From a virus (taxonomy: Duplodnaviria; Caudoviricetes), in the IMG/VR virus record IMGVR_UViG_3300031953_000062, positions 1-37,984 of that record: a DNA stretch of 37,984 nucleotides; one strand, written 5' to 3'. The notes under the pieces were generated by a model. It worked only from the letters and a program-made list of their open reading frames with translations, made no database searches and had not been told where the DNA came from. Both the position numbers and the translations under genes were made by a program. Every line of letters starts with the position of its first letter. Position 1 is the first letter of the stretch. Of this stretch, positions 3,888-26,599 are shown piece by piece.

Positions 3888-5627
3888 ATGACTGTCCTTA
3901 GCGATCCAATTGACAAAGTATCGGACGGCGATGGCGTCACAACGGCGTTTCCCTATACGGGCCGCAACGCTGATCCGAACGACATTTTCTGTTATATCAT
4001 TGCGCCAAATGGCGCGCGGCGCATTCCAAGCTATACCGTGACCGGCGATGGCAACGGCGTGACGGTCACGATCACGTCAGAGGTTCCCCAGGTCGGGGAT
4101 AAAGTCGTGCGGTTTCGCGATACGTTGCTGCGCCAGGATGTGAATTACGAGGGCGGCAATTTCCCCTCAAGCACACATGAAAACAATGCCGATAAATTAA
4201 TGATGGCCTCGCAGGACCGGCGCGCGACCGAGGGGCGCAGCCTGCGCCTGCGGCGCGGCGCCGCTGCTATTCCCGAATTGGAGCCATTTTCCGCGCCGGG
4301 CTTGGCTATGGTGTCAACGCCAGAGGGCGGCTTTGGCGAAGGCCCGGCAGCAACCGAGATTGCCAACGCCCAAGCCTATGCGCTCGATGCGCAAGGATGG
4401 GCGGAAAGCGTCACCGAACCGGGCGCGCCGGGAACCAAGAGCGCAAAAACATGGGCGGGGCTTTCTGGCGGGTATTCTGATGCGGCAGAGGCGGCGCGCG
4501 ATGCGGCCCAAAGCGCCCAAACTATGGCTGAGGTTATCTTAGATAGCTTTGATGATAGTTATCTCGGCGCAAAGGCGGCAGATCCGGCCCTTGATAATGA
4601 CGGCGATCCGCTTGTGGTCGGCGCGCTGTATTACAATACGACCGAAAACGAAATGCGGATCTATGACAGCGTGAACTGGGCGGCGGTGTCGGCTGGTATT
4701 GAGCTGGCACTAAAGAAAGCAAACAATCTAAGCGACCTGTCGAACCTCCTTACCGCGCGGGCAAACCTTGAGCTGATCAAGCAAACCGCGCGCGACGATT
4801 TCACGGCGGGCCGCATGGTTGTGATGGAAGGCGCGCGCGGCGCGGCCCTCGCGCAGTTTGGGGGCAATTACTCGGCGTCCACCTTGGATATCGATGCTGT
4901 TGACGCGGGGTTTTCGGGTCTGGTCAGCACGACAAACGCAGGCACTATCCCTAGCGGCGGCGGCTCATTCTTTTATCTAGAGTGCCAAGCGGCCTTTTCG
5001 GGCGCGGCGGTAATCCAAACGGCCACATTCGGATATGCGGGCAGCGGCACGCCCAGCGAAACAAAGATCTTCATCAGGCAGCGGGCAAATAGTGGCGGCG
5101 TCTGGGGCGCATGGCAGCGGCTTGTCGTCGCGCCGGAAGCTGACAATGGCGGCTGGAATTACCACCCTCTCGGGGCGGTGGGTACGACCGCCGGGACGGT
5201 TTATGATTTTACTGGCATTCCGGCATGGGCAAACGAAATCAAACTTATCTTTCGCGGGGTGTCTCTGACCGGCAATAGTTACGGGCTGGTGCAAGTGGGC
5301 GCTGGCGCGATAGCTGATACCGGGTATGCCTCGGCCAGCGGCGGGATCACTGGCGCAAATCTTTGCACCTTTGACACGGCAACTAACGGCTTCGTGATTT
5401 TCAACAATAACGCGGCGTCTTATTTCGACGGCGAAATGATGTTGATGCGTACCGCGCCGCTCGCAAATTCTTGGGTCGCGAGCCATGCAATCGGGCGCGG
5501 CGCATTCGGCGTATCACAGGGCGGCGGCGACACGACCCTTGGCGGCGCTCTGGACCGCGTGCGCCTGACGCGGGTTGGCGCCCATACTTTTGATACCGGC
5601 AATATCTCTGTCGCGTGGCGGCGGTAA
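3888..5627 (+). CDS. Tail fibre protein (579 aa)
   Basis: T7 gp17-like N-terminal anchor (GDGVTTAFPY), KANNLSDL fibre motif, WGAWQR knob-like motif, beta-rich C-terminal domain. Confidence 0.85.
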   Translation: MTVLSDPIDKVSDGDGVTTAFPYTGRNADPNDIFCYIIAPNGARRIPSYTVTGDGNGVTVTITSEVPQVGDKVVRFRDTLLRQDVNYEGGNFPSSTHENNADKLMMASQDRRATEGRSLRLRRGAAAIPELEPFSAPGLAMVSTPEGGFGEGPAATEIANAQAYALDAQGWAESVTEPGAPGTKSAKTWAGLSGGYSDAAEAARDAAQSAQTMAEVILDSFDDSYLGAKAADPALDNDGDPLVVGALYYNTTENEMRIYDSVNWAAVSAGIELALKKANNLSDLSNLLTARANLELIKQTARDDFTAGRMVVMEGARGAALAQFGGNYSASTLDIDAVDAGFSGLVSTTNAGTIPSGGGSFFYLECQAAFSGAAVIQTATFGYAGSGTPSETKIFIRQRANSGGVWGAWQRLVVAPEADNGGWNYHPLGAVGTTAGTVYDFTGIPAWANEIKLIFRGVSLTGNSYGLVQVGAGAIADTGYASASGGITGANLCTFDTATNGFVIFNNNAASYFDGEMMLMRTAPLANSWVASHAIGRGAFGVSQGGGDTTLGGALDRVRLTRVGAHTFDTGNISVAWRR

Positions 5628-7721: not shown

Positions 7722-7783
7722 CGCGCCTGTAGCGCGCTAAATTCCAACTGTCCCAAGGGGGGCAATACCGCGCCTCCCCAACT

Positions 7784-7812
7784 GGCCCCGCATCACGCGG
7801 GGTCTTTTTTTT
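7784..7812 (+). terminator. Intrinsic terminator of the late/lysis operon
   Basis: GGCCCCGC-ATCAC-GCGGGGTC followed by a T8 run. Confidence 0.8.
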
Positions 7813-8042
7813 GCGCGCGCGTAGATCATAGAACAATGGCCCAACCGGCTGCATGGCCGCGCGCATTCCATCGGGCCGAATCGCATGGCGCGTTCAATGA
7901 GAAAAAAATCACACAACGCGGCGGGGTGCGCTTGCGTTATAGGCGCCGCGCCCCCCTTGGATGTGTGTTTTTTTTGGTAGTGCATATAGATCATAAGAAG
8001 GGGCAAAATTAAAACGCAGCAATCCCAGCATGTTGCGAGGGG

Positions 8043-8137
8043 GCAAATGGACAGCACGTGTCCATTACAATGGACAGCACGTGTCCATTTGCGTTCCCTA
8101 TCCGTTCGCGCGACCGATGTGGCCATTAGTATGGCCA
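8043..8137. repeat. Palindromic iterons / Rep-binding sites of the plasmid origin
   Basis: AATGGACA-GCACG-TGTCCATT occurs twice exactly (8046-8066, 8069-8089). Related TGGCCAT-TAGT-ATGGCCA at 8120-8137. A/T tracts upstream; directly 5' of rep. Confidence 0.75.
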
Positions 8138-8206
8138 GACTTGACACTATACCTGACGCCGTGTCACTTGGACGGACAGGCACCGCAGGCAAAGAGGGCA
8201 TACCAG

Positions 8207-8773
8207 ATGGAGCATATAAGGTTGAACAAGACGCAGGCCGATATGGTTGACGGGCGCAAGCCATGGCTCAAGTTGACGCGCATTGGCACGATTGAAATGT
8301 CGCGGCTGATCGGGGAAACTCCGAGAGGCGCGCGATTGCTTGCGGCCTTGTTCGCAGCAATGGACGATAACAACACAGTAGTGGCAACGCTCGACACGCT
8401 GGGCGAGCTTTCGGAAATGTCGGGGCGCACGGTTCAACGCGCCGTTGATGATCTGATGGAGCGCAACATTCTTGAGGTTCTGCAAATTCAGAAGCGTGGC
8501 GCGGCCCATGCCTACCGGATCAATGAGCGGGTTATCTGGTCGGGCCGGGGGCCGAAGGCGCGCGCCGTGGTCACTGCGCGGTTGCTCTTGCGCGGCGATG
8601 ACCAAACACAGCCCGAGTTGGTTGGCACGCCGCAGGCACCGCTGCCCAATTTAGACCCTGACGCGTTGACCTTGTTCAAGAATGTGCATCAACCCGAGGG
8701 GTGGAATGATCCTCACACAACGCTGGATCAGCTCGATATGGACGCGCTGATGCGGCGCCCCGCCGAAGAGTAA
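8207..8773 (+). CDS. Plasmid replication initiator, pBBR1-Rep / RepL family (188 aa)
   Basis: ARLLAALFAAMDDNNTVVATLDTLGELSEMSGRTVQRAVDDL...AYRINERVIW resembles pBBR1 Rep as recalled from memory (winged HTH). AGAGGG RBS. The ORF-track start at 8030 would run through the iterons. Confidence 0.8.
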   Translation: MEHIRLNKTQADMVDGRKPWLKLTRIGTIEMSRLIGETPRGARLLAALFAAMDDNNTVVATLDTLGELSEMSGRTVQRAVDDLMERNILEVLQIQKRGAAHAYRINERVIWSGRGPKARAVVTARLLLRGDDQTQPELVGTPQAPLPNLDPDALTLFKNVHQPEGWNDPHTTLDQLDMDALMRRPAEE

Positions 8774-8783
8774 ACAAAGGAAA

Positions 8784-8813
8784 GCCCGCAAGATATCAAA
8801 GTATCTTGCGGGC
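8784..8813. terminator. 12-bp hairpin between convergent rep and par genes (likely bidirectional terminator)
   Basis: GCCCGCAAGATA-TCAAAG-TATCTTGCGGGC. Confidence 0.65.
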
Positions 8814-8817
8814 CTTC

Positions 8818-8837
8818 TATCTTGCTAGCTTGCTAGG
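8818..8837. repeat. Downstream centromere-like repeats of the par locus
   Basis: TATCTTGC TAGCTTGC TAGG; same units as 10214-10269. Confidence 0.55.
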
Positions 8838-9065
8838 TTAGACTTCGCCAGCATCCGCGCGCAGCAATTCAAGCGCGCGCTCGACGAGCTGGTATTGCGG
8901 CGTGCGCGTCTTGGCCGATAGCACGCGCACATAGCTGGCCAGATCCGCATTGATCCGCACATTGAATGGCACTTGCGCGCTATCCTTTACGGTGTCCGTC
9001 GCGGGTATCGTGGGCGCCCGGCGCGGCGGCGGCGCGATGCCGCCAAGGCTGGTTGGCTTTTTCAT
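8838..9065 (-). CDS. Ribbon-helix-helix centromere-binding protein (ParG-like, 75 aa)
   Basis: Disordered N-terminal tail, then PFNVRINADLASYVRVLSAK...QLVERALELL (RHH pattern). Downstream of parA. Confidence 0.75.
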   Translation of the reverse strand: MKKPTSLGGIAPPPRRAPTIPATDTVKDSAQVPFNVRINADLASYVRVLSAKTRTPQYQLVERALELLRADAGEV

Positions 9066-9265
9066 AGCTGTTCTTTCTCTTGGTTGTCGTCCGGCATCAA
9101 TATGTAGCGCGGCGGATACGCTCTTTTGATATTGGCCATCGCGTTGCAAATTGGCTCTGCCGCCATATGAAAATCGCGCTGGATCTGGACAAGCTGGCGC
9201 TGGTACAGGTCCATTAACTGCTGGTCGTCAACGCTCAGATCGGGCGGTAAGGTGACTACTTTCAT
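9062..9265 (-). CDS. Hypothetical protein (67 aa) inside the par operon
   Basis: ATGA overlaps with both neighbours. Confidence 0.65.
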   Translation of the reverse strand: MKVVTLPPDLSVDDQQLMDLYQRQLVQIQRDFHMAAEPICNAMANIKRAYPPRYILMPDDNQEKEQL

Positions 9266-9906
9266 GCGTCTGCCCCTTGTCCTGCCATCATCACGGCGGC
9301 AACCTCTGCCGCCAGTGCCTTGGCCTCTTCATTGATCCGCTTGTGTGCGGTTTCGGATGCGGCGCGCCCGATAGTGTGGGCCTGCCGGATGGTGGGCAGC
9401 TCGCGCAGCTCGCCATCGAGCGCGATCAGCCCGGCGCGCTTGATGTAGTCGCAGACCTCTGCCCGCTCTCTGGCCGATCCTCTGACGCGGCCAAGGCCAA
9501 GCCGGATCTTGCCGGGCGCGATGCCTGCCTCTTCCAGCTCGAACGCAACCCGCATTTGCGGTTCCAGATCGTCCAAGCTGTAGCCGGTCGGCAAGATAAC
9601 CAGATCTGACTTGCGCGCCATGGTCAGCCCACCGCGCTCGGCATGGGCTGGCCCGTCCAGAATGAGCAGATCAAACCGCGCGGCTTCGGCAAGCGCGCGT
9701 TCAACGCTGCGGAATTTCTGCACGTCCAGATCCGGCTCGATGCCGTCGCGGTCGCGGCGCAGCTTCCAGATTGTTGACGTGCCTTGCGCCGCGTCCAGAT
9801 CCGCGATCATCACGCGCCAACCGGCGCGCGCCATTTCAACGCCCATGAGGCGGGCGAGGGTGGATTTGCCGACCCCGCCTTTCTGACTGATAAGCGATAG
9901 GATCAT
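9262..9906 (-). CDS. parA: Type Ib ParA Walker ATPase (214 aa)
   Basis: SQKGGVGKST deviant Walker A, ADLDAAQG, ILDGPA. No N-terminal HTH. Confidence 0.92.
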   Translation of the reverse strand: MILSLISQKGGVGKSTLARLMGVEMARAGWRVMIADLDAAQGTSTIWKLRRDRDGIEPDLDVQKFRSVERALAEAARFDLLILDGPAHAERGGLTMARKSDLVILPTGYSLDDLEPQMRVAFELEEAGIAPGKIRLGLGRVRGSARERAEVCDYIKRAGLIALDGELRELPTIRQAHTIGRAASETAHKRINEEAKALAAEVAAVMMAGQGADA

Positions 9907-10169: not shown

Positions 10170-10213
10170 TGGTTTAGCTCCTTTGCTGCGGCGCGTTCGC
10201 TGCGCCTGAAAGG

Positions 10214-10269
10214 TAGCTTGCCAGATTGCTAGCAAGGTATCAAGCAAGATTGCTAGCTAGCTATCTTGG
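10214..10269. repeat. Upstream centromere-like array (seven degenerate 8-bp units)
   Basis: TAGCTTGC CAGATTGC TAGCAAGG TATCAAGC AAGATTGC TAGCTAGC TATCTTGG, directly upstream of the par operon. Confidence 0.65.
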
Positions 10270-10436
10270 CGTATATCTGCCAGTGCGGGCAAGCGGTCTG
10301 GCTCGTCAAGTAGATCATCCATATTATCATGCATACTTAGGGCCGGGCGGATAAGCCTGATAGCCCGCATCTTGGCATTGTGCTGCCGCCGCGTTTTGAT
10401 CGCCGATAGGATGGTTTTGATTGAGCGGGTTTGCAT
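10257..10436 (-). CDS. Small protein (59 aa) directly after the recombinase; not in ORF track
   Basis: GGAGG RBS; ATG abuts the recombinase TAA; MQTRSIKTILSAIKTRRQHN...IRQDS. Confidence 0.55.
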   Translation of the reverse strand: MQTRSIKTILSAIKTRRQHNAKMRAIRLIRPALSMHDNMDDLLDEPDRLPALADIRQDS

Positions 10437-11591
10437 TTATGCGGCCTCCAACATGGTGAGTGCGATATCTTCCAGCGCCGGGGTGCGTATCATATTCAGG
10501 CGTCCAACGGCGCGATCTGCGAGTAGGCGCTGGCGGGGCAGGTAGGTTTCCAGAATTTCCATACCGCGCTTGATCGAGTGGCCCGATACTGAACAGATAT
10601 CAGGAATGAGCGCGCCCGATTGTGCGGCCCAAACCATGCCGGTGCGGCGCAGATCCGACGCGCATAGCGGGCCTTTCAATGTCGCCTCGCGCACGGTGCC
10701 ATCCAGCCCTAACAGCGACGGCATATCCTTTGCCGCCTCGGCGCGCACAGCGGCCCATGCCCGTTCAAAGCTGCGCTCGCCATAGCCTGCGCCGGTGGTT
10801 TCGCTGGTGATCAGCGCGCCGGTGCCGGTGATCGGGCCAAGGCGATCCGCTGCGACGGGATGCAAAAGAAAGTTCAGCTCCGCGCCGGTCTTGCTCTGCG
10901 TGAAATAAAGCGCGCCATCCTGCACTTGCGCGGCGGTAAAGGATAGCGCATCGCCGGGCCGCTGCATGGTGGCGGTGATCAGAATGGCGGCGACGGCCAC
11001 GGACGGGCGCCCGATCCGGTCGGCGGCGTTCACCATGGCCCAAAGCTCGTCTCTTGTCCCGACGCGCTTGCGCCGGGCTGGGCTATCAATGCGCAGCGAT
11101 GCGGCGGGATTGCTGCGCGCTTGGCCCAGCTCAATCGCCCAAGTGAAGAGGGCGCGCAGGGTGCCAAGGTGGTTGTAGGCATCGCGCGCGCTCGATGCGG
11201 CCAGCTTGGTGTGCCAGCCGCGCACAACGCTGGCGGTGATCTGCTCGATGCGCTTGGCGCCCAGATCCGCGCGGGCGCGGGCAAGGTGGCGCGCATAGTG
11301 GCGCCGCGTGCTGGCGCGGATGCCGGTGAGGTAAGCGGGGTGCGCCTGATACCGCTCGATCATGTGGCCAAGCGTGGCGGGCGCGCTGCTGGCCGCGCCA
11401 TCTGCGAGCTGCGCATCTGCGGCGGTGTTCAGCTCGTCGGCGGCGTTGAGATTTTCCGAAGATAAAAGGCCAAGGGCCGCGCCCTTAAACCCGAGCTTGC
11501 GCAGGGATTTTGACGGCTCCCAAAAGATCCTATCTTTCTTGATCTGGACGCGGGGCGTGGCTTTAGCACGGCGGATTAGGCTGGCGGTCAT
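10437..11591 (-). CDS. int: Tyrosine recombinase / integrase (384 aa)
   Basis: TMQRPGD (R), QSKTG (K), SDLRRT (R), SGHS (H), LETYL (Y); core-binding domain upstream. Confidence 0.9.
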   Translation of the reverse strand: MTASLIRRAKATPRVQIKKDRIFWEPSKSLRKLGFKGAALGLLSSENLNAADELNTAADAQLADGAASSAPATLGHMIERYQAHPAYLTGIRASTRRHYARHLARARADLGAKRIEQITASVVRGWHTKLAASSARDAYNHLGTLRALFTWAIELGQARSNPAASLRIDSPARRKRVGTRDELWAMVNAADRIGRPSVAVAAILITATMQRPGDALSFTAAQVQDGALYFTQSKTGAELNFLLHPVAADRLGPITGTGALITSETTGAGYGERSFERAWAAVRAEAAKDMPSLLGLDGTVREATLKGPLCASDLRRTGMVWAAQSGALIPDICSVSGHSIKRGMEILETYLPRQRLLADRAVGRLNMIRTPALEDIALTMLEAA

Positions 11592-11627
11592 GGTGGTATC
11601 CTTTGCATGTGGCGGCGCTGGTTCGCA

Positions 11628-11963
11628 TTAGCGCGCTGCTTTGTTTTGATTGGCCATCACTTCGGCCAGGCTATAGATCGTCTGTTGCTGGTCTGGTGTG
11701 AGGCTGCGGTAATAGGTCAGTAGTTTCAGCTCTTGCAGGTTTTGGGTTTCGGGTTGCGGCGTCATGGCCAGCGCGGGCATTAATTCCGCCGGCCGACAGT
11801 CCAGAATTTCCGCAAACAGCACGGCCTTTTCAGGCTTCATATTGATCTTTCCACTTTCCAATTTTGACAAGAGCTGCTGCGAAATACCAGCGGCTTCGGC
11901 CAGATCGGCTTGCGTCATGCCCTTCGCAATACGCCTTAGGCGAAGCGGGCTAACTGATTGCAT
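11628..11963 (-). CDS. XRE-family immunity repressor (CI-like, 111 aa, no S24 peptidase domain)
   Basis: GMTQADLAEAAGISQQLLSKLESG HTH; divergent from a cro-like gene. Confidence 0.88.
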   Translation of the reverse strand: MQSVSPLRLRRIAKGMTQADLAEAAGISQQLLSKLESGKINMKPEKAVLFAEILDCRPAELMPALAMTPQPETQNLQELKLLTYYRSLTPDQQQTIYSLAEVMANQNKAAR

Positions 11964-11995
11964 TTTCTATTCCTTCCAAGCGTGGCCGCGATCTT

Positions 11996-12077
11996 TACTC
12001 CAATTTGGATTAGCCCAATTGTTTATCGTTGTAATCCATTTTCTGACTGTTACAACCTTTTACTACAAAATGGATTA
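11996..12077. promoter_or_regulatory. cI/cro switch operators
   Basis: TACTCCA-ATT-TGGATTA (11996-12012) and TACTACA-AAA-TGGATTA (12061-12077); half site TAATCCA at 12032. Confidence 0.75.
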
Positions 12078-12092
12078 ATCAGGGGTTGTGAT

Positions 12093-12326
12093 GTGACATT
12101 GGGTGAATGGGCGGATGCTCACGGTTTAACGGATCGTGAGATTGCCGAGCGCATGACAAAATGGCAGGAAAAACAAGGCATTGATGATAGTGTAAGTGTT
12201 CCAGCGGTGCAGAAATATCGGACGGGCAGGGTGCCAAAGTCTGACCGGATGCTGGCGATCTTCGGCATCACTGATGGCTGGGTAACGGCCAATGATTTCT
12301 ATGATCTGCCGGTGGTGGTTGCATGA
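12093..12326 (+). CDS. Cro-like regulator (77 aa, GTG start)
   Basis: TLGEW...VSVPAVQKYRTGRVP...ITDGWVTANDFY pattern; divergent from the repressor. Confidence 0.8.
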   Translation: MTLGEWADAHGLTDREIAERMTKWQEKQGIDDSVSVPAVQKYRTGRVPKSDRMLAIFGITDGWVTANDFYDLPVVVA

Positions 12327-13402
12327 CGAACCCCGCTTATGAAGAGATTCGCCGCGCGCGGAGTGAAGAGGCATCGCTGATTTCGGCCATGCTAAAAGAT
12401 CGGGTCGATGCTCTGGCGCCGCTGCTGCTGCCCGAAGGGCGCCGCGAGGGTGCCAATTGGCGGGCCGGGTCCAAAGGGTCCAAGTCAATCGTTCTGACCG
12501 GCCCTAACCGGGGCGTGTACCGGGATTTTGAACAAAGCTCTGACGGCATGGATATGCTGAAAGCGATTGCAGAATTGCTGCATAATGGATCTTTGCGCGA
12601 GGCTGTCGCATGGGCGAAAAGCTATCTTGGCATGGCCGATATGGATGCGGGCGCCATCGAGCTGGCGCGGCGCAAATCCGAAGAGCGGGCCGCAAAGGAT
12701 CGCAAAGACAAGGCGGCGCAGGATCTAAAGCGCCGGTCGCAGGCGGGCGGGATCTGGCATAGCGCCGCGCCGCTGGCCGGGACCATGGCGGAAACCTATC
12801 TGCGCGATGCGCGCGGCATTCATCTTGACCGGCTGGCCGCGCCGCCGAACGCGCTGCGCTTCTCGCCAAAGGTCTGGTGCAAGGATCGGCGCGGCGAATA
12901 TCCGGCGATGGTGTCGAGCCTCTGGCGCATGGGCGATCCGAAGCTGGTGGCGGTGCATCGCACCTATCTGGATGCCGCGCCGGATGGATCTGTTGACAAG
13001 GCTAAAACCAATACGCCGCGCTCGATCCTTGGATCGTGGCCCGGCGCGGTTATTCCCATTCAGCGCGGCGAAGCTGGCACGCGCTGGAAGGATATCGAAG
13101 AGGGCGAGCTGGTCGCGCTCGGCGAGGGCATCGAAGAGGGGCTATCGGTGGCGCTGGTAAAGCCAACGTGGCGCGTGGGCGCGGTGGGGTTCGTCGGCAA
13201 TTTCAGCAAGATCGCCTTGCCTGTGTGGTGCCATCTTATGATCTGCGCAAACAATGATCCGCCCGGTAGTGAGGCGGCGATTGCGATTGATAGGGCGGTG
13301 CCTGCCTTGGAAGAGCGCGGCCATGTGGTGCGCGTCCTGCGCCCGCCAAACGAGTTCAAAGATTGGAATGATTTTTTGCGCGGGGTGAAACGTGGCCGAT
13401 AG
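12323..13402 (+). CDS. Toprim-domain primase-like protein (359 aa)
   Basis: YLRDARGI, AVHRTYL, LGEGIEEGLS, CANND and KDWNDFL motifs. Confidence 0.82.
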   Translation: MTNPAYEEIRRARSEEASLISAMLKDRVDALAPLLLPEGRREGANWRAGSKGSKSIVLTGPNRGVYRDFEQSSDGMDMLKAIAELLHNGSLREAVAWAKSYLGMADMDAGAIELARRKSEERAAKDRKDKAAQDLKRRSQAGGIWHSAAPLAGTMAETYLRDARGIHLDRLAAPPNALRFSPKVWCKDRRGEYPAMVSSLWRMGDPKLVAVHRTYLDAAPDGSVDKAKTNTPRSILGSWPGAVIPIQRGEAGTRWKDIEEGELVALGEGIEEGLSVALVKPTWRVGAVGFVGNFSKIALPVWCHLMICANNDPPGSEAAIAIDRAVPALEERGHVVRVLRPPNEFKDWNDFLRGVKRGR

Positions 13403-15347
13403 TGATTTTAAAGACAGTGAAGAGGCGGTGCGCGCGGCGCTCGATGCGCAGGCAGATCCTCAAGGCCCGCGCGTGATTGTCGCCGGGGCGGATAAGTCGC
13501 TGCGCGTTGATGATCATGGGCGGATGATTGTGAGCGCCGCGCCCAAGCTCAGCCAGTTGCCCCCAGATGCGCCGGTGCGGGCGCTCGGGACGCATGGCAA
13601 TAAGTGCTATTTTCTCGATGCGCATTCGCAGCTCAGAGAATTGCCTGCCAAAGAGGTCAACCGCACGATGGTCTTGCATATGTTCGGCGACGAAACGCAA
13701 TGGATCTATGACCTATGGCCGGTGCTGCGCAAAAGCGAGGATGATCTATGGGTTATTACCGGATGGGATGCCAGCAAGGCGCAAGAAAGCATGTTGCGCG
13801 CCGTCGCGCGGCGCGGCCTGTGGCGCCCGCAAGATCATGTGCGCGGGCGCGGGACGTGGGACGTGGGCAAGGGGCGGCTTGTGGTTCATGCGGGTAATTG
13901 CTTGCATTTTTCCGATGGAAAGGTCGAGCGGCCCGGCTTGATCGGCGCCGATGTTTACCCCGCCTCGACCCTGGCCCTTGCCCCCGCGAAAAAAGGCGAA
14001 GGGCCAAGCGCCTCTGAGGCCGTCGAAGAGCTGCTGGAATTGTTCGGCCTGTGGAATTGGGCGCGTGAGTTTGATGGGCGTTTGCTCTTGGGCTGGGTGA
14101 TCGCGGCCATGGTGGCCGGTGCCTTGGGCATCCGCCCGCTGGTCTGGGTGACGGGCGAAAAGGGAACGGGTAAATCATCCTTGGTCGGCGAGGATGGTAT
14201 CATTCATAAGATCTTCGGCGATGGTATCCTTATGACGGCCAACACCACGGCGGCGGGCCTTTATCAAAAGATCGGCTATGACGCGCTGCCGGTGGCGATA
14301 GACGAAATTGAAGCCAAGCGCGGCAACCAGAAAACCGAAGCTGTGATCGAGCTGGCGCGGCAAGCCTATTCGGGCGGCATGGTATTGCGCGGCGGCGCTG
14401 ACCATGAAGGCAAAGAGTTTCGGGCAATGTGTCCGGTGCTGTTTGGCTCGATCCTGATACCGCCCTTGATGCCGCAAGATCTATCGCGCCTTGCGCTGTT
14501 GAACCTGCGGCCCTTTGATATTGACGCGCAGGAACCAAAGGTAGAGCCGGGCCGTCTGGGCGAGCTGGGCCGGGCCATGCTGCGCGGGATGCTGGATATG
14601 TGGCCTAAATGGCCGGAGCGACTGACCGTCTGGCGCGATTATCTGCAAGGGCTTGGCCATGATCAGCGCGCCAGCGGCCAGTTTGGCACGCTCTTGGCGA
14701 TGGTCGACCTGCTCATGCATGACACGCCGCCAAGCGAAGAGAATATGGAGCATATCGCGGGCCGCATGACGCCGGTGACATTGCTTGAAACGCAATCTGC
14801 CAGCTCGAACGCTGAGCGGTGCGTAGGCTATGCTATGTCGCGCCCGCTGCATTCGTCGCGCGGCGGTGAGCAAATGATGGTGTCCGAGCTGGTCGCCTGC
14901 GCGGTGCGGCGCTACGGCGGCGAAATGGAAAACCCGATAAAGCCGCTCGATGCTGTGCGCTATTTGGAGCGCGCCGGGGTGTCGGTTCTAGTCCAGCAAT
15001 CGGACGGCGGCGAGCTGAAATTAACCAAGCCGGTCAGAGTCGCGCCGCATGACCTGAAAGATATTCTCGATGCGGAATTTGACGGCGGGGATCTGGGCGT
15101 GTTCGTCGCGTTCTCGCCCGATGGTGACGGCATTTTGGAGCTGTTCAGGGGGTCCGATTGGGAAGGCGTGGCGGGCGCGCACAACCCCTATGTGCAGGCG
15201 CTTGAGCGCGTGCCGGGCGCGCGGCGGGCTGCGAATGTTGTGCGGGTTGGGGTGAGATCCTGCCGCCCGATTTTGGTGCCGATCAAGCAATGCGTTGATG
15301 TGCCAAGCGCGGCGGAAGTGGCGGCGGGGTCTGGCAATGACAATTGA
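13392..15347 (+). CDS. Replicative helicase / P-loop NTPase partner of the primase (651 aa)
   Basis: Walker A GEKGTGKS, Walker B VAIDE; coupled to the primase gene. Confidence 0.8.
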   Translation: MADSDFKDSEEAVRAALDAQADPQGPRVIVAGADKSLRVDDHGRMIVSAAPKLSQLPPDAPVRALGTHGNKCYFLDAHSQLRELPAKEVNRTMVLHMFGDETQWIYDLWPVLRKSEDDLWVITGWDASKAQESMLRAVARRGLWRPQDHVRGRGTWDVGKGRLVVHAGNCLHFSDGKVERPGLIGADVYPASTLALAPAKKGEGPSASEAVEELLELFGLWNWAREFDGRLLLGWVIAAMVAGALGIRPLVWVTGEKGTGKSSLVGEDGIIHKIFGDGILMTANTTAAGLYQKIGYDALPVAIDEIEAKRGNQKTEAVIELARQAYSGGMVLRGGADHEGKEFRAMCPVLFGSILIPPLMPQDLSRLALLNLRPFDIDAQEPKVEPGRLGELGRAMLRGMLDMWPKWPERLTVWRDYLQGLGHDQRASGQFGTLLAMVDLLMHDTPPSEENMEHIAGRMTPVTLLETQSASSNAERCVGYAMSRPLHSSRGGEQMMVSELVACAVRRYGGEMENPIKPLDAVRYLERAGVSVLVQQSDGGELKLTKPVRVAPHDLKDILDAEFDGGDLGVFVAFSPDGDGILELFRGSDWEGVAGAHNPYVQALERVPGARRAANVVRVGVRSCRPILVPIKQCVDVPSAAEVAAGSGNDN

Positions 15348-15618
15348 AGGTCGGGCAGTGACAATTGAAGAGCGCCGGGAAATGCTAGACGCAATGCGCC
15401 GGCCGCAGCGGCTTATGCTCAAGCGGGCCTATGCTAAAACGCAGCGGCATCCGTTGATGATGGACGGGCCAAACATGGCCCGCGTTGCGCAAGAAATGGT
15501 GCGCCTTGGCTATCTGAAACAATGCCGCGCCGGGTATGTTCTGACGGGCGCTGGCTTCAAGCTGGCCTTCGCGCTGCGCGTGGATGGCTGGCCGAATTGT
15601 GAAAAGGGAAGGGGTTAG
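15337..15618 (+). CDS. Small basic protein, possible winged helix (93 aa)
   Basis: VAQEMVRLGYLK...GYVLTGAG resembles a winged-helix end; overlaps the helicase stop. Confidence 0.55.
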   Translation: MTIEGRAVTIEERREMLDAMRRPQRLMLKRAYAKTQRHPLMMDGPNMARVAQEMVRLGYLKQCRAGYVLTGAGFKLAFALRVDGWPNCEKGRG

Positions 15619-15621
15619 ATT

Positions 15622-15807
15622 ATGATGATGTCACTAAAGCGGGTAACGTGGAAACGCGACCCGACCGAAGAGGAATATGAGCAATTGAAGAGGGCAATAT
15701 TTTTTGGCCCTTCTGTTTTTGAAAGGGGCCGTGAATGGCTGTTTCTCTGGGGTGATGATCCTGAAATTCACGCTGACACGCCGCCCGGCTACCGCCGGAT
15801 TAACTAA
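15622..15807 (+). CDS. Hypothetical protein (61 aa)
   Basis: Follows 3 nt after the previous stop; purine-rich RBS. Confidence 0.5.
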   Translation: MMMSLKRVTWKRDPTEEEYEQLKRAIFFGPSVFERGREWLFLWGDDPEIHADTPPGYRRIN

Positions 15808-15880
15808 ACGATAAAGCGCAACCGACTATGCCGACTATGCCGATTGCGCTGCGGATCTGCGAGCTGGTGAGGGCGTGCGT

Positions 15881-16120
15881 TTACCGCTTCCAGCGATCCG
15901 GCCAAAGGCGGCGCGGCGTTGCGGCCAGCAGCTCGGCGGCGGCTTGTACGCCAATGGGCGGCGCGTCGTCGCGGCCCTTGGGCGGGGTAAACCAGCGGCG
16001 CACCTGCTGGCCGGGCATATCCAGCGCGCGCGCAACCTCGACACGCCAATGCGGTCCGAGAACGCGGGCGAAGAGGGCGGCGGTGCGCTCGCGCGCGGCG
16101 ATTTTTTCTGCTGTGGTCAT
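15881..16120 (-). CDS. Small HTH DNA-binding protein (79 aa)
   Basis: GAGGAG RBS; WRVEVARALDMPGQQVRRW HTH pattern. Confidence 0.7.
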   Translation of the reverse strand: MTTAEKIAARERTAALFARVLGPHWRVEVARALDMPGQQVRRWFTPPKGRDDAPPIGVQAAAELLAATPRRLWPDRWKR

Positions 16121-16217
16121 GGCCTGAGTTCTCCTCTATATCGAAACTTGTCCTTTGCGGACAACAGGGGCGGCGCTGGTTCGCAAAATCATAAAGTGCC
16201 GCCCCGACCCTTTCCCC

Positions 16218-16964
16218 TTACTCTTCAATTCTTTGCCTTAGGGATTTGCCGTTAAACATTGTCCAGCCGGTGCTTTCCTCTAGGTCCAGATATTTTTGGT
16301 AAAGATCGGGCCTTTGATTCGCGCCATGTTTTAGGTCGCGGCTGCATCCCATAATGCAAAATACGCAAGAAAGCCGTTCGTTGCCTTCGTATGCCCAGAA
16401 GGGCTTTTGTTCCGCATTCTTGATAATGGCAAAGACATGCTGCGTCGTTAGGTGATGAATGGGCATGTATTCATAAACCTCGCGCCCCGCCTTGCTTAAA
16501 ACCGCGTTGATTTTTAACGGTTCTTTTTTGGCACGGCTGGGGCTTTCTTCTGAGCGAATTCCGGTGCAATTCAGGGCCAGCGTTGCGCCGCGTAACTTCA
16601 TATCGTTTCTGATAAATTTGTGTATTGGGTTGCGCTTCAAGTCGCTGGTGCATTGGCGGGTTGCGCTGGATGGCCAGGACGGCACGTCAGGCCGGGTTTT
16701 GGCGCGCTGCTCCACCATTTCAAAGAAAGTTTTGCCCGCGCTGACTACGTGCAGCCGGTGGGCTATTGTCGCGCGAATGTGGTCTTGCACGCCGGTCCAT
16801 TCGATTTCGCCTAGATCTGCGTGAACAGCGATGATTTGCGCATCGGGAACAAAGCGCCGGATTTCTGAATACATTGCTTGGCTATCTTTGCCACCGCTAT
16901 GCGACACGTAAAACAGGGCGCCGCGCGCAACAAACTGCGCGATCTTTTCTTGTTCCAAAATCAT
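16218..16964 (-). CDS. Phosphoadenosine-phosphosulfate (PAPS) reductase family protein (248 aa)
   Basis: SHSGGKDS PP-loop, RQCTSDLK, GIRSEESPSRA, RLSCVFC. Visibly more AT-rich than the flanks. Confidence 0.88.
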   Translation of the reverse strand: MILEQEKIAQFVARGALFYVSHSGGKDSQAMYSEIRRFVPDAQIIAVHADLGEIEWTGVQDHIRATIAHRLHVVSAGKTFFEMVEQRAKTRPDVPSWPSSATRQCTSDLKRNPIHKFIRNDMKLRGATLALNCTGIRSEESPSRAKKEPLKINAVLSKAGREVYEYMPIHHLTTQHVFAIIKNAEQKPFWAYEGNERLSCVFCIMGCSRDLKHGANQRPDLYQKYLDLEESTGWTMFNGKSLRQRIEE

Positions 16965-17044
16965 ACCCCGCACCCCACTGCAATAAAGACCATTCCGAAA
17001 AGCGTTGTGATAAGCGCCAGCATGGCGAGAATGTCGCGGATCAT
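16961..17044 (-). CDS. 27-aa membrane microprotein MIRDILAMLALITTLFGMVFIAVGCGV
   Basis: ATGA overlaps at both ends; hydrophobic. Confidence 0.6.
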   Translation of the reverse strand: MIRDILAMLALITTLFGMVFIAVGCGV

Positions 17045-17169
17045 ACCCCCAGCCCCCCTGCAATGAAGATCAGGGCGCTAGTCAGCATGGCAAAGACGGC
17101 AATTGCGATCACAAGCGCGCCGATCAGCATGGCCAGAATGGGCCTTTCGCCGAAAATCGTTTTAAACAT
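17041..17169 (-). CDS. 42-aa membrane microprotein MFKTIFGERPILAMLIGALVIAIAVFAMLTSALIFIAGGLGV
   Basis: AAAGGA RBS within the conserved leader; ATGA overlap with the next gene. Confidence 0.65.
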   Translation of the reverse strand: MFKTIFGERPILAMLIGALVIAIAVFAMLTSALIFIAGGLGV

Positions 17170-17176
17170 GGTTCGT

Positions 17177-17274
17177 TCCTTTGCGTTTGTCGGCGGGTTC
17201 GCGTGTCGCCGATAGTCTGGCCGGAATTGGCGCAGGGTGCAGCGGCCCGAGCTGGGGCCGCTGGCGCTGCGTCA
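17177..17274. repeat. ~100-bp structured intergenic repeat, copy 1
   Basis: 8 substitutions and 2 indels versus 18624-18723 by manual alignment; two hairpins. Confidence 0.92.
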
Positions 17275-18033
17275 CGCGGCGAGCTGGTGCGCCTCTGCGG
17301 CCCCGCCCCATTGCAGCGCCATGGCCTGCGCTACGCCGGGAAAAAACCGGCTGCGCTCTTTCCAGCGGTTTTTGCCGGGGCTGGCCTTGTGGACGCTATC
17401 GCGCGCCGTGGTGCCGTCGAGCGTGCCGGTGCGGTCCAGCTTGGGCAGGCCGCGCAGCCAAAGGCATGTGCGCTTTTTCTCATTGTCGGGGCCGTGTTCG
17501 TCGGTCCCGAATTGCCACGGCTGGACGCTCTGCGCGGCGGGCTGAAAGTTGCGAATGCGCTCTTTTGCGTGCGGGTGCATGACCGGATTTTCTACCGCGA
17601 TCATGGGAATATGCGGCACGTTCCACACGTCCGAAAACAGCGCCGCGCCCGCGTCTAGGTGCCGCCAGATCATCGCCAAGCGATCTTCATGCGATAGCGT
17701 CGGCCAAGCTGCCGCCTCGTCGGGCGTGCAGTCAGCGGGCGGGTTTGTCGGTGGCGTTGTCAGCCAACGCACGCCGGAATTGCAAAGCCGGGTGCAAGGC
17801 GGGTGCATCACGGCCAGAATGTCCCAATCATCCTGCATCATCACGTCGCGCACGTCGCCGGTGATATGGCGATTGCTGGGCCGCTCGGCTGGCAGTAGGT
17901 CGCAGCTCCAAGCGTCATGGCCTAGAGCGTTGAACGCATCGCGCACAACGCCGGATTGCTCGCACCCGATCAGCACTTTAAGCGCGCGCTGCGGGTGGGC
18001 ATCGAAGAGGGGGAAAAGGCTGGTTTGCAACAT
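17272..18033 (-). CDS. C5-cytosine DNA methyltransferase-like protein (253 aa)
   Basis: VLIGCEQSG (motif I variant), SCDLLP, HPPC (motif IV), VENP (motif VI), QPWQFG...KRTCLW. Confidence 0.7.
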   Translation of the reverse strand: MLQTSLFPLFDAHPQRALKVLIGCEQSGVVRDAFNALGHDAWSCDLLPAERPSNRHITGDVRDVMMQDDWDILAVMHPPCTRLCNSGVRWLTTPPTNPPADCTPDEAAAWPTLSHEDRLAMIWRHLDAGAALFSDVWNVPHIPMIAVENPVMHPHAKERIRNFQPAAQSVQPWQFGTDEHGPDNEKKRTCLWLRGLPKLDRTGTLDGTTARDSVHKASPGKNRWKERSRFFPGVAQAMALQWGGAAEAHQLAA

Positions 18034-18239
18034 CAAACCGCCTCCCCGTTGACTTCGTACAAGTCGCCGTCGCCGTCCATGCTGGCTTCGCCCAAGATCG
18101 GGCTGCCATCCGGCCAAGCGCCGAAATTGCTATCAGCGCAATCGAGATTGTCGCGCAAAATGCGGCGCGCGTCGGCCTCGCTATCGGCGGTCACTGTAAG
18201 CGCGACCAGCATTTTCACGTCAAAAGAAAAAGTTTTCAT
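18033..18239 (-). CDS. Acidic hypothetical protein (68 aa)
   Basis: TGATG coupling to the methyltransferase-like gene. Confidence 0.6.
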   Translation of the reverse strand: MKTFSFDVKMLVALTVTADSEADARRILRDNLDCADSNFGAWPDGSPILGEASMDGDGDLYEVNGEAV

Positions 18240-18243
18240 TGGT

Positions 18244-18615
18244 TCAGCCCTCGCCCTTTTCTGCGGTTTCAAGATCCTCGGTAATCCATGCCATCGCGGT
18301 GCAAATGTCGCTCCATTCCTCGTCATGCTCGGGCGTGCCTTCGGGGATGCAATCCTCGCGGTAGCCTGCCAGCGCGCTCCAGATCGTTTCAAGGTGGCTG
18401 GCCCTATCGTCGCGCGTCAGTGTGGTTTCATGCGGCCAGCGCGCCGCGTTGAGCGCGGTCAGCTCCGCGTTCAGGATCACGGCCCTATCTGCGGCGCTGG
18501 CCATGCGGCGCAGCTCGGCGAAAGCCTCTTTGACGCCCTGCGGGGTGCCGTCTGCATAAACGGCCAGCAGGGGCAAAAGGTTGTTGCTCCAAGTCATTGA
18601 GATATTGATTTCCAT
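18244..18615 (-). CDS. Acidic hypothetical protein (123 aa)
   Basis: AAAGGA RBS within the conserved repeat. Confidence 0.7.
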   Translation of the reverse strand: MEINISMTWSNNLLPLLAVYADGTPQGVKEAFAELRRMASAADRAVILNAELTALNAARWPHETTLTRDDRASHLETIWSALAGYREDCIPEGTPEHDEEWSDICTAMAWITEDLETAEKGEG

Positions 18616-18623
18616 GGGTCTAG

Positions 18624-18723
18624 TCCTTTGCGGTTTTCGGCGGGTTCGCATGTCGCCGGGGGTCTGGCCGGGATTGGCGCAGGGTGCAGCGGCCCCGAGC
18701 TGGGGGCCGCTGGCGCTACGTCA
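18624..18723. repeat. ~100-bp structured intergenic repeat, copy 2
   Basis: See copy 1. Begins at the ardC stop and ends at the next RBS. Confidence 0.92.
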
Positions 18724-19602
18724 CTCTGCGGCGATTGCGATATCTGCCATGCTGGCGCATTCCTGCGCGTAGTTGCTGGCTTTCTGGGCTGCGCTGGCGG
18801 CGCGGAAAATAAAGCGTTTGTCGTCCTTCAAGGCTTTTAACCAGCTCGCAACGTAGGCGGCGGAATTGTCAAAGTCTGGTTCTGCGCCGATATGCGCGCA
18901 AAGGAATACTGACCCAATTTCTGCGACCAGCTCTTCGAGCGCGCGCCCGGCGGTCGTGTCATATTTCTTGTCGCGGTCCAGACGCTTGGTTGCGCCGGTC
19001 CAGTGGATCAGCTCATGGGCAAGCGTGCCGTAAAACTCATGGGCGGTTTTGAAATTTTTGACGGGCGGCATGTGGATGCTGTCAGAGGCCGGGCGATAGC
19101 AAGGGTTTGTACCATCGATCTTGATCGCCGCGCCGGTCGCGGCGAAGAACGTCTCTAGATCCTCGATCGGGCGCGCGCCGGTGTCGATATCGTCGGCCCC
19201 GGTCCAGCTCCAATTGTCGGGCAGATCGTCAATTTGCTGGACGTTAAAAACGGTGTATTTTTTTAGGAAAGGGATTTTCTCAACCTTGCCCGCGTCGTTT
19301 TCCTTCTCAAAGGCTGAGGCAAAAACGACCGTTGTACCCTTAGACCCTTTGCGCACCATGCCGCCGAGCTTCTTGGCCTGCTGAAATGTCATGTAGCTGG
19401 GGCAGCTCCAGCCGTTTTCCTCTGCGGCCATCCACAGCAGCAGCACGTTAATGCCCTGATACGCCTCGCCGGTGACGCGCAGCGGCAATGCGCCGCCGGT
19501 GCCGCCGGTCCAATCCTTCGACCATGGGCGCGTACCGCTTTCCAGTGCGTCAATGAATTTATCCGTGATCATCTGGTGAATGTCGATTTTTGGCTGTGCC
19601 AT
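18721..19602 (-). CDS. ardC: ArdC-family antirestriction protein (ssDNA-binding domain plus zincin-like domain, 293 aa)
   Basis: GTRPWSKDW, YQGINVLLL, MTFQQAKKLGGMVRKG, YTVFNVQQ, TLAHELIHWTG, EELVAEIGS, AAYVASWLKAL. Confidence 0.93.
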   Translation of the reverse strand: MAQPKIDIHQMITDKFIDALESGTRPWSKDWTGGTGGALPLRVTGEAYQGINVLLLWMAAEENGWSCPSYMTFQQAKKLGGMVRKGSKGTTVVFASAFEKENDAGKVEKIPFLKKYTVFNVQQIDDLPDNWSWTGADDIDTGARPIEDLETFFAATGAAIKIDGTNPCYRPASDSIHMPPVKNFKTAHEFYGTLAHELIHWTGATKRLDRDKKYDTTAGRALEELVAEIGSVFLCAHIGAEPDFDNSAAYVASWLKALKDDKRFIFRAASAAQKASNYAQECASMADIAIAAE

Positions 19603-19669
19603 GGGTCTATTCCTTTTGCGGGTTGGCCGGGTTCGCAATCCGGCGGGGCCATCCAGCGGCCTTGGATCA

Positions 19670-19698
19670 TAGATAGAAACCAATGGTTGCGCAGTCAA
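19670..19698 (-). promoter_or_regulatory. Sigma70-like promoter of the leftward ardC operon
   Basis: TTGACT-17 nt-TATCTA on the minus strand; the spacer contains the palindrome AACCA-T-TGGTT. Confidence 0.6.
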
Positions 19699-19838
19699 GG
19701 GGGTAAAATGCAGATAATTTGCGCGCGGCGCGTCTCGATATGCCAGAACACAACCCCGCACCCCAGATTTACCCCTTCCCCCGACCCCATCGGGATGATA
19801 GCTAATCGGGGCCATAGCGCGGCGCAGCGCGGGCGATT

Positions 19839-20120
19839 TGTTACAGCGCAAGGCGGGATTGTAACGCCGATGTAACAACGCCAAGCCATTGATCACACGG
19901 CATAAATCCACATTCTGTTACAATGTTACAATGTTACGCGATGCCCTATCGTGATCACATACACGCGCATACATGCGGGCAAAGTAATGTAACAACGTAA
20001 CATTGTAACAGAGATGTATATTTAGATGCAATTTCAACGGTTTAGCTATGTTACATCGCTGTTACATCGCTTCGACCATTGTAACAGCATCGACGTTTAG
20101 GAAGGCTTATCAATGGCTTA
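19839..20120. other. Putative lytic replication origin: 12 TGTTACA/TGTAACA-type iterons in mirror symmetry with IHF-like sites
   Basis: Iterons at 19839, 19860, 19871, 19916, 19924, 19932 and at 19988, 19996, 20004, 20049, 20060, 20080. IHF-like sites at 19882, 20032 and 20108. Confidence 0.7.
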
Positions 20121-26300: not shown

Positions 26301-26599
26301 CTGCGCCTAGCAATCCTTATGGGCCGCTCGGGCTGATTAAGTCCGTGCTGCGTTGCGACGACGACACCGCCTTGGCTGTGAAAAACAACCTGGGCGGCGT
26401 GCTGTCGCATGAACCAACGCGGGCATTCATCGCGATTGCTTGGCACCTCGCAAACACCACTGCCACCAGCAAGGGTGGCAGTGATAAATCCGTTTACATC
26501 AATGAGGGCAAGCGCATGGCCGGGCTGTTTCTAGTGCAGTGTGCCGGCCGCGGGCTTGACCTATCCACTTTCAGCGAACCAAAGGACGAATCTAAATGA
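26297..26599 (+). CDS. Bbp19-like head-module protein (100 aa)
   Basis: INEGKRMAGL motif; lies between portal and scaffold. Confidence 0.65.
   Translation: MTAPSNPYGPLGLIKSVLRCDDDTALAVKNNLGGVLSHEPTRAFIAIAWHLANTTATSKGGSDKSVYINEGKRMAGLFLVQCAGRGLDLSTFSEPKDESK

Follow-up and report, generated by a model that had tools for sequence, protein, structure and literature searches.

What is the short stem-loop that recurs in front of leftward genes in the virus record IMGVR_UViG_3300031953_000062 (Duplodnaviria; Caudoviricetes), and what might it do there? We analysed this record as a single stretch of 37,984 nucleotides (nt), here called the window, together with its relatives. Sequence comparison shows a real and undescribed leader hairpin that is conserved across the clade; its GCGAAC loop is fixed, and a GCAA box comes after it. 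Our favoured account of its function is that it acts as an RNA operator for HTH79, a small helix-turn-helix (HTH) protein of the same phage, and so damps translation; we rate this a little short of an even chance.

The leader hairpin in the window and its relatives

The first-pass annotation had reported six stem-loops on the minus strand, and we found all six in place, with the sequences as read there. The copies and two of the genes between them are as follows (SD, Shine-Dalgarno sequence; aa, amino acids):

19603..19644, minus strand: copy 1, with hairpin 19626-19644 and GCAA box plus SD 19611-19619, before ardC
18721..19602, minus strand: ardC anti-restriction gene, 293 aa (Pfam ArdcN and MPTase-PolyVal; PHROG anti-restriction)
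18616..18658, minus strand: copy 2, with hairpin 18638-18658 and box plus SD 18624-18631, before a 123-aa gene (start 18615)
17272..18033, minus strand: DNA methyltransferase-like gene with an inferred start (PHROG 757)
17170..17212, minus strand: copy 3, with hairpin 17190-17212 and box plus SD 17177-17184, before a 42-aa gene (start 17169)
16148..16205, minus strand: copy 4, a double hairpin, with the GCGAAC hairpin at 16167-16205, a second hairpin at 16148-16164 that has GCAAA as its loop, and a separate SD downstream
11592..11634, minus strand: copy 5, with hairpin 11615-11634 and box plus SD 11599-11606, before a tyrosine recombinase gene
10170..10206, minus strand: copy 6, with hairpin 10190-10206 and box plus SD 10179-10186, at the head of the par operon

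The first G of GCGAAC lies at 19636, 18649, 17202, 16184, 11626 and 10200 in copies 1 to 6. Five copies form 5-6 contiguous pairs and the remaining one (16184) has a longer stem with interruptions. The combination of GCGAAC with GCAAA(A)GGA is far above chance, since six of the 17 GCGAAC hexamers in the window have GCAAA(A)GGA no more than 34 nt downstream, whereas 200 dinucleotide shuffles averaged 0.03 such cases and never gave more than 1. When at least 5 contiguous Watson-Crick pairs were required in the stem as well, 5 were observed compared with 0.005 in the shuffles. The annotation had placed GCAAA(A)GGA within a few nt of the stem, which is accurate for five copies (2-7 nt past the stem) and slightly too tight for the copy before the HTH79 gene (8 nt). 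GCAAA(A)GGA is also present without a hairpin at six further window sites, three of them just 5' of rightward (candidate) starts (1330, 21152, 27669).

The element had been recognised as no named motif, and this held: Rfam 15 gave no window match at gathering score, and none of the seven matches at E<=10 overlaps any copy. A scan with a model of the element found no additional copies in the window or in the complete relative G001; this model also misses the long-loop HTH copies. Loop C of 5S rRNA, LexA boxes and SAM-II were dropped as possible identities, the reasons being a short match only, the wrong spacing and no Rfam match. No description of the motif was found in the literature searched, which comprised the text of papers outside subscription. 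Separately, a late-gene leader at 26558-26595 (plus strand) has GCGAAC directly 5' of the SD, after CTTGACCT; it is kept in contig L235 (~4670-4708) and forms no clear hairpin.

The relatives used were two complete genomes, G001 and G002 (helicase 63-65% identical), and the partial contigs L126/L119, L127, L130 and L232. In total we counted 25 copies: 6 in the window, 7 in G001, 6 in G002, 2 in L126, 3 in L127 and 1 in L232. Their slots are kept in every GCGAAC-type genome that covers them, namely the first early leader (5/5), the HTH leader (4/4), the recombinase leader (4/4) and the par leader (4/4). The recombinase slot is kept in G001, G002 and L126/L119, the last retaining the stem with a GCGACC loop, and the par slot in G001, G002 and L126; in relatives the element is also found between early genes. 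The more distant L130 carries a variant at the first and HTH slots, with loop TCTGCAAT and box GACGCAA. Beyond these contigs, the best model score among distant relatives and three Rhodobacterales plasmids was 17.7 bits, against 27-55 for true copies, and nine inspected model matches in this set were without the loop; this absence from more distant phages and three host plasmids makes the element clade-specific. Pattern scans of IMG/VR (117 loci in 13 of 64 parts; 90 stretches in the full scan) returned no clade-member locus with repeated hairpins, and the matches were treated as chance.

The stems vary in sequence and stay paired. Among the 21 non-HTH copies, each copy's own arms form a mean of 5.4 Watson-Crick pairs versus 3.2 for arms swapped between copies, and the pair sum of 114 exceeds the maximum of 98 in 20,000 permutations, a test that ignores how closely the copies are related. 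Stem pairs flip freely (the third position is C-G in 10 copies and G-C in 10), and 5 pairs are reached at only 2 of the 59 GCGAAC sites that the three complete genomes contain besides the copies. Folding of single copies is modest (z of +0.5 for the first leader and -0.4 for par); the evidence for structure is comparative rather than energetic. Just 5 of the 130 stem pairs are G-U. We take the fold to be one of RNA rather than DNA on the strength of how the copies are oriented and spaced relative to the start codon, and G-U pairs play no part in this: in all 21 of these copies, a set chosen partly on the GC(A/G)(A/G) box itself, that box lies 10-24 nt 5' of an ATG, always in the sense orientation.

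The GCAA box had been suspected of being more than a Shine-Dalgarno sequence, and the relatives bear this out. CCGCAA is kept before the unlike SDs CGGAG, AATGGAG and CTAGGAG, so the box is not merely an SD, and at the HTH slot it is kept away from the start codon. In all four GCGAAC-type genomes covering that slot the box forms the loop of the second hairpin, on stems of 6, 3, 3 and at least 4 bp that differ in sequence, and the first loop (UUUGCG) is complementary to it over 7, 7, 6 and 6 nt. At the other copies the loop-box complement is 2-5 nt, without compensation.

By family assignment, the genes behind the element are anti-defence or leading-region types (ArdC, ArdA, DUF932, LPD29, DUF3560, methyltransferase), which agrees with the earlier proposal of a single conserved, covarying cis-element before establishment-type genes. 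Those behind the early copies vary from genome to genome: ArdC and a methyltransferase in the window, ArdA in L232, DUF932 in G001 and LPD29, behind a hairpin copy, in G002. Several small early genes belong to no Pfam family. Contigs of co-occurring relatives are alike at the elements and divergent between them (joint 18734-19620; loose ends 16206, 17176, 17215 and 19620). A further joint, 17274-18661, seen in one run, was rejected as an excision because one of its sides, of 21 nt, falls inside the repeat. However the element works, its motif flags the exchangeable early genes of this phage clade as candidates for anti-defence functions, and several of these genes have no known family.

HTH79 and the early promoter

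A loop that stays constant while its stem changes freely, next to the ribosome site, suggests a partner that reads the loop sequence. The annotation had offered a protein-binding or antitermination site, an antisense-RNA target or a single-stranded DNA element; of these, protein binding is the best fit, with the HTH protein that it had named as the best candidate partner. The features concerned are:

19670..19698, minus strand: predicted early leftward promoter TTGACT-17-TATCTA, with the same layout in G001, G002, L127, L232 and L130
19678..19688, no strand: palindrome AACCATTGGTT in the promoter spacer, a candidate DNA operator
15881..16120, minus strand: HTH79, a 79-aa four-helix HTH protein and candidate regulator, encoded by the last gene of the early leftward operon

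The core CCA(T/A)TGG is present in the spacer in 6/6 distinct genomes or contigs covering it, the promoter itself being predicted. This promoter-type pattern occurs once in the window, and a strict sigma-70 scan did not pick up the promoter at 19670-19698. The first-pass description, sound on the six stem-loops, had missed the palindrome, the second of the two hairpins at the HTH slot and, ahead of two copies, a separate stem that looks like a processing site.

HTH79 closes the early operon in all five genomes covering it, with homologues in G001, G002, L127 and L130. It is family-specific, with 13 clusters at E<=0.001 among 1.84 billion representatives, and PADLOC returned nothing for it. The predicted model, with a predicted local distance difference test score of 95.7, is an HTH fold of four helices (3-21, 25-32, 37-44 and 56-67) with an Arg-rich N-terminal helix and a long loop after the recognition helix. 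Its helices are close to those of Aca1 as given in the accessible text of PMC8633003. Aca1 ranks 3 of 48,161 chains against the model (Z 5.8, root-mean-square deviation 3.0, 63 aligned residues, 21% identity) and is its best-ranked prokaryotic fold match, tied with others. The recognition helix reads VSR in L130 versus (V/I)RR in the other four of five genomes; together with the loop and box variant of L130 this suggests a partner that evolves with the phage, from one case only.

If HTH79 is the partner, the course of events might be as follows. On entry, the early promoter, still unrepressed, would drive a pulse of products such as ArdC and methyltransferase. HTH79, the last to be produced, would accumulate and likely close the early promoter through the palindrome, as Aca2 does. 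It would then bind the hairpin loop on messages already made, with less translation as the presumed result, and a second HTH79 subunit may sit on the similar GCAA motif beside the SD. The RNA operators would extend the control by HTH79 to int and par, whose promoters are without the palindrome.

Much in this arrangement resembles the control exerted by Aca1 and Aca2. As far as described in the available parts of PMC13551039, PMC8633003 and PMC12658196, these systems also have a small HTH gene that closes an early anti-defence operon, an inverted repeat in the promoter, and a covarying hairpin between predicted promoter and start codon, with copies between genes and at neighbouring operons. The Aca layout given in PMC13551039 places the hairpin just after the start site and ends it ~20 nt before the start codon, the RNA motifs being found also between genes and at neighbouring operons; the present arrangement, as predicted, agrees with this. 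The leader of acrIF1 in JBD30 is similarly built from a hairpin, an A/C linker and AAGGA. The differences are that HTH79 is without significant homology to these proteins, that the RNA and DNA motifs are not the same, that the cargo here is anti-restriction, no acr gene having been identified, that the conserved part here is a fixed loop sequence, and that recombinase and partition genes too lie behind the element. The Aca2 DNA operator contains ATTGCGAAC, there as half of an inverted repeat that is absent here. If the model holds, the element would work like Aca1/Aca2 control; HTH79 is not classed as an Aca, given the lack of significant sequence homology to Aca1 and Aca2. As a kind of regulation this would appear to be a variant of the known Aca type.

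Several results weigh against HTH79 as a translational repressor acting through the hairpin. Sequence comparison with the Aca families, which covered Aca1 and Aca2, gave no significant homology by hhalign (E 0.22 and 0.32), and with a hidden Markov model of the HTH79 family Aca1 and Aca2 score no better than shuffles. The fold match lies within the generic HTH range, in that two POU domains rank higher and C.EcoT38I ties. The early-promoter palindrome and the hairpin loop share no sequence, and a CI or Cro site would be an equally good reading of the palindrome. In the leader of HTH79 itself the element ends ~11 nt 5' of the SD. GCA(A/G) is found at the box position without a hairpin in 4/18 rightward genes and 15/99 host-plasmid genes, and early genes of G001 and L127 carry GCAA-SD without a hairpin. 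According to PMC13551039, the RNA motifs predicted for Aca10 and Aca12 were not bound by these proteins, and binding by Aca1 led to no translational silencing. On the structural side, to the disregard of relatedness in the permutation test must be added that RNAalifold returned no pairs for an alignment built on sequence only and that a single fixed stem register did no better than shuffles; both nulls can be attributed to register shifts of 1-3 nt and to a loop whose 5' part varies by 1-4 nt.

A wider proposition, tentative and rather unlikely as a whole, is that HTH79 represents a new repressor family of the HTH type that binds both DNA and RNA and has a genome-wide RNA regulon in a phage-plasmid. 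It would read a single-stranded loop of fixed sequence and, at the ribosome site, GCAA as a second motif, tie anti-restriction, recombinase and partition into one translational establishment switch, and sense its own level through a loop-loop kissing structure in an autoregulatory leader. Within the portion of the literature covered, Aca2 and Aca1 are the only HTH regulators shown to bind RNA. The present system offers a new protein family and a 45-nt target in six natural versions, so that the generality of HTH-RNA control is directly testable, and L130 provides a natural variant pair for a specificity swap. If true, Aca-like control would extend beyond anti-CRISPR operons to recombinase and partition genes.

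Alternative accounts of the element

The strongest alternative, which we consider unlikely though not negligible, is a self-contained structured leader in which the loop GCG pairs with the CGC of the box as a small pseudoknot or kissing structure that governs access of the ribosome, either unaided or together with a host factor. The 6-7 nt complement at the HTH slot in 4/4 genomes, the A/C-rich linkers between stem and box, and the fact that at least 3 such pairs are possible in 20/25 copies all fit this account. Against it, 5/25 copies allow only 2 loop-box pairs, and the par copy in G001 has a linker of 1 nt, which could not span a stem of 6 bp. The base immediately 5' of GCG is T in 12, C in 8 and A in 5 copies and its would-be partner stays A, which indicates no loop-box compensation.

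Less probable again is that the element is a processing or stability signal combined with a gene-swap joint. Here the early transcript would be cut at a second structure, module A, which we take to resemble substrates of RNase III or RNase P, and the hairpins would cap the new 5' ends. Module A is present twice in the window:

18675..18723, minus strand: module A copy 1, a long interrupted stem from stop codon to CCA and a candidate processing site
17228..17274, minus strand: module A copy 2

These precede copies 2 and 3 of the hairpin and start at stop codons, with a conserved CCA and a fixed A-C mismatch. We counted eight copies of module A in four genomes, with two-sided changes at 7/16 pairs; the DUF3560 gene of L127 also lies behind one. 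That module A covaries and precedes many middle copies favours processing, as does the likely place of the first and par copies near transcript 5' ends, and the likeness of co-occurring relatives stops at the elements, with different genes between. A protective hairpin, however, needs no fixed loop, and any repeated leader would give rise to gene swapping as a side effect. In addition, module A can stand alone (in G001 and L127), as can the hairpin (at the int, par, first and HTH slots), which makes them separate modules.

In G001, G002 and L127 the 3' strand of module A has an alternative partner just downstream, and this pairing could form a switch coupled to the terminating ribosome.

An improbable third account is a signal for transcription antitermination or attenuation, presumably of the nut/boxB or put type, with the arginine-rich first helix of HTH79 or a host Nus factor as partner. 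Such a signal would suit a fixed loop on a variable stem near a promoter, the GC-rich hairpins between early genes and the Arg-rich N-terminal helix; it is at odds with copies that recur before single genes and adjoin SDs, with the HTH bundle that HTH79 is predicted to form, and with module A, which has no U-tract and at which the terminator scan found no terminator.

Still less probable is a phage antisense RNA, of what we assume to be the C4/CI type, that pairs with loop and box, possibly through the HTH-leader loop in trans. Two short single-stranded motifs would suit a two-site antisense RNA, and an anti-box followed by an anti-loop is present at 8088-8109 on the plus strand of the window, G002 having one such site elsewhere. 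No conserved partner was found: the 8088-8109 site is missing from an 83%-identical relative and the three complete genomes have no candidate at an orthologous place, shorter seeds being possible. A DNA-level hairpin, as a single-stranded promoter or recombinase site, is the most improbable of all: ArdC is typical of plasmid leading regions and the scarcity of G-U pairs leaves RNA versus DNA unfixed by folding alone, but the element belongs to a tailed double-stranded DNA phage (portal, capsid and tail genes), none of the 48 open reading frames (ORFs) scanned matches an RNA polymerase family, and its orientation and distance follow the start codon.

Among repeated leaders of other elements, three invite comparison with the hairpin, each as far as described in the accessible text of the source. 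The SAS and ESAS of Cluster K mycobacteriophages (PMC3203893), whose function is given there as unknown, are likewise oriented repeats with an SD and extra conserved bases before non-structural genes; the inverted repeats of ESAS are conserved in sequence without support for an RNA hairpin, whereas here varying stems stay paired. EGeRS1 and EGeRS2 of pLS20-family plasmids (PMC8708921) are repeated leaders before establishment genes that include ardC and methyltransferases. EGeRS1 spans 420-750 bp at 62-95% identity and blocks read-through, and EGeRS2 is a promoter with ribbon-helix-helix operators; the present element is, in contrast to EGeRS1, ~45 nt long and located in a phage, and its longest shared repeat is 72 nt, or ~110 nt with module A. 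The PeSL cassettes of T4-type phages (PMC2839356) are repeated intergenic cassettes that also border swapped early genes, but they consist of a promoter and a terminator, and most copies here have neither; the terminator scan found no minus-strand terminator at any copy.

The phage and its remaining features

The two ends of the window overlap within one large gene, so it represents a complete circle of ~38 kb. Its genes include portal, capsid, tail, internal virion proteins and endolysin on the virion side, and primase, a helicase-like protein, a CI-like repressor, a tyrosine recombinase, ParA and a ribbon-helix-helix protein besides; a weak Rep-like ORF is encoded as well. It is probably a temperate podophage of Rhodobacteraceae that persists as a plasmid, a phage-plasmid. 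We found ~30 close helicase homologues, many on contigs of 36-40 kb, the named ones from Ruegeria and Roseivivax, and no close cultured phage in the GenBank collection. The leftward genes around copies 5 and 6 are:

11628..11963, minus strand: CI-like repressor, with its stop codon within copy 5
10437..11591, minus strand: tyrosine recombinase gene, behind copy 5
10210..10235, minus strand: inferred par promoter (TTGCTA ... TACCTT), read by eye, amid GCAAG/CTAGC repeats
8838..9906, minus strand: parA, a small ORF and a ribbon-helix-helix parB-like gene

The leader of the CI-like repressor itself is without the hairpin element. The tyrosine recombinase (10437-11591, minus strand) belongs to a separate family of ~25 proteins with an N-terminal extension and may resolve plasmid dimers instead of integrating.

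Upstream of the early promoter, a G-rich, G-quadruplex-like block at 19750-19805 (minus strand; TATCAT, then GGGG runs) is kept in 6/6 genomes covering it. GTTACA/TGTAAC repeats in both orientations at 19830-20090 are origin-like and kept in relatives, as GTCACA/GTGAC in G002. This genome also has a second early-promoter-like site after parB (~5515, minus strand) and, in its late region at 36154, the promoter palindrome adjacent to an anti-box and an anti-loop.

GCAAG/CTAGC repeats flank the par operon on both sides (8780-8840 and 10210-10270) and may be parS or autoregulatory sites; the early regions of L127 and G002 contain similar repeats. A two-way terminator-like stem of 16 bp lies beside the operon at 8780-8817. 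The Rep-like slot (8030-8773, plus strand; beside parB in G001 and G002) has a weak RepL/HTH match in the window; G001 and G002 carry unrelated ORFs there, with direct repeats of their own. These differences suggest replicon swapping. At 7750-7811 (plus strand) we noted a stretch that resembles a small RNA; it contains a CCUCCCC motif, has an intrinsic terminator and gave a weak SorX match (E 0.012, under gathering score). Finally, the 40 kb Phaeobacter plasmid NZ_CP010594.1 (L238) is an unrelated phage-plasmid in which a LuxR/acyl-homoserine-lactone synthase pair adjoins the repressor.

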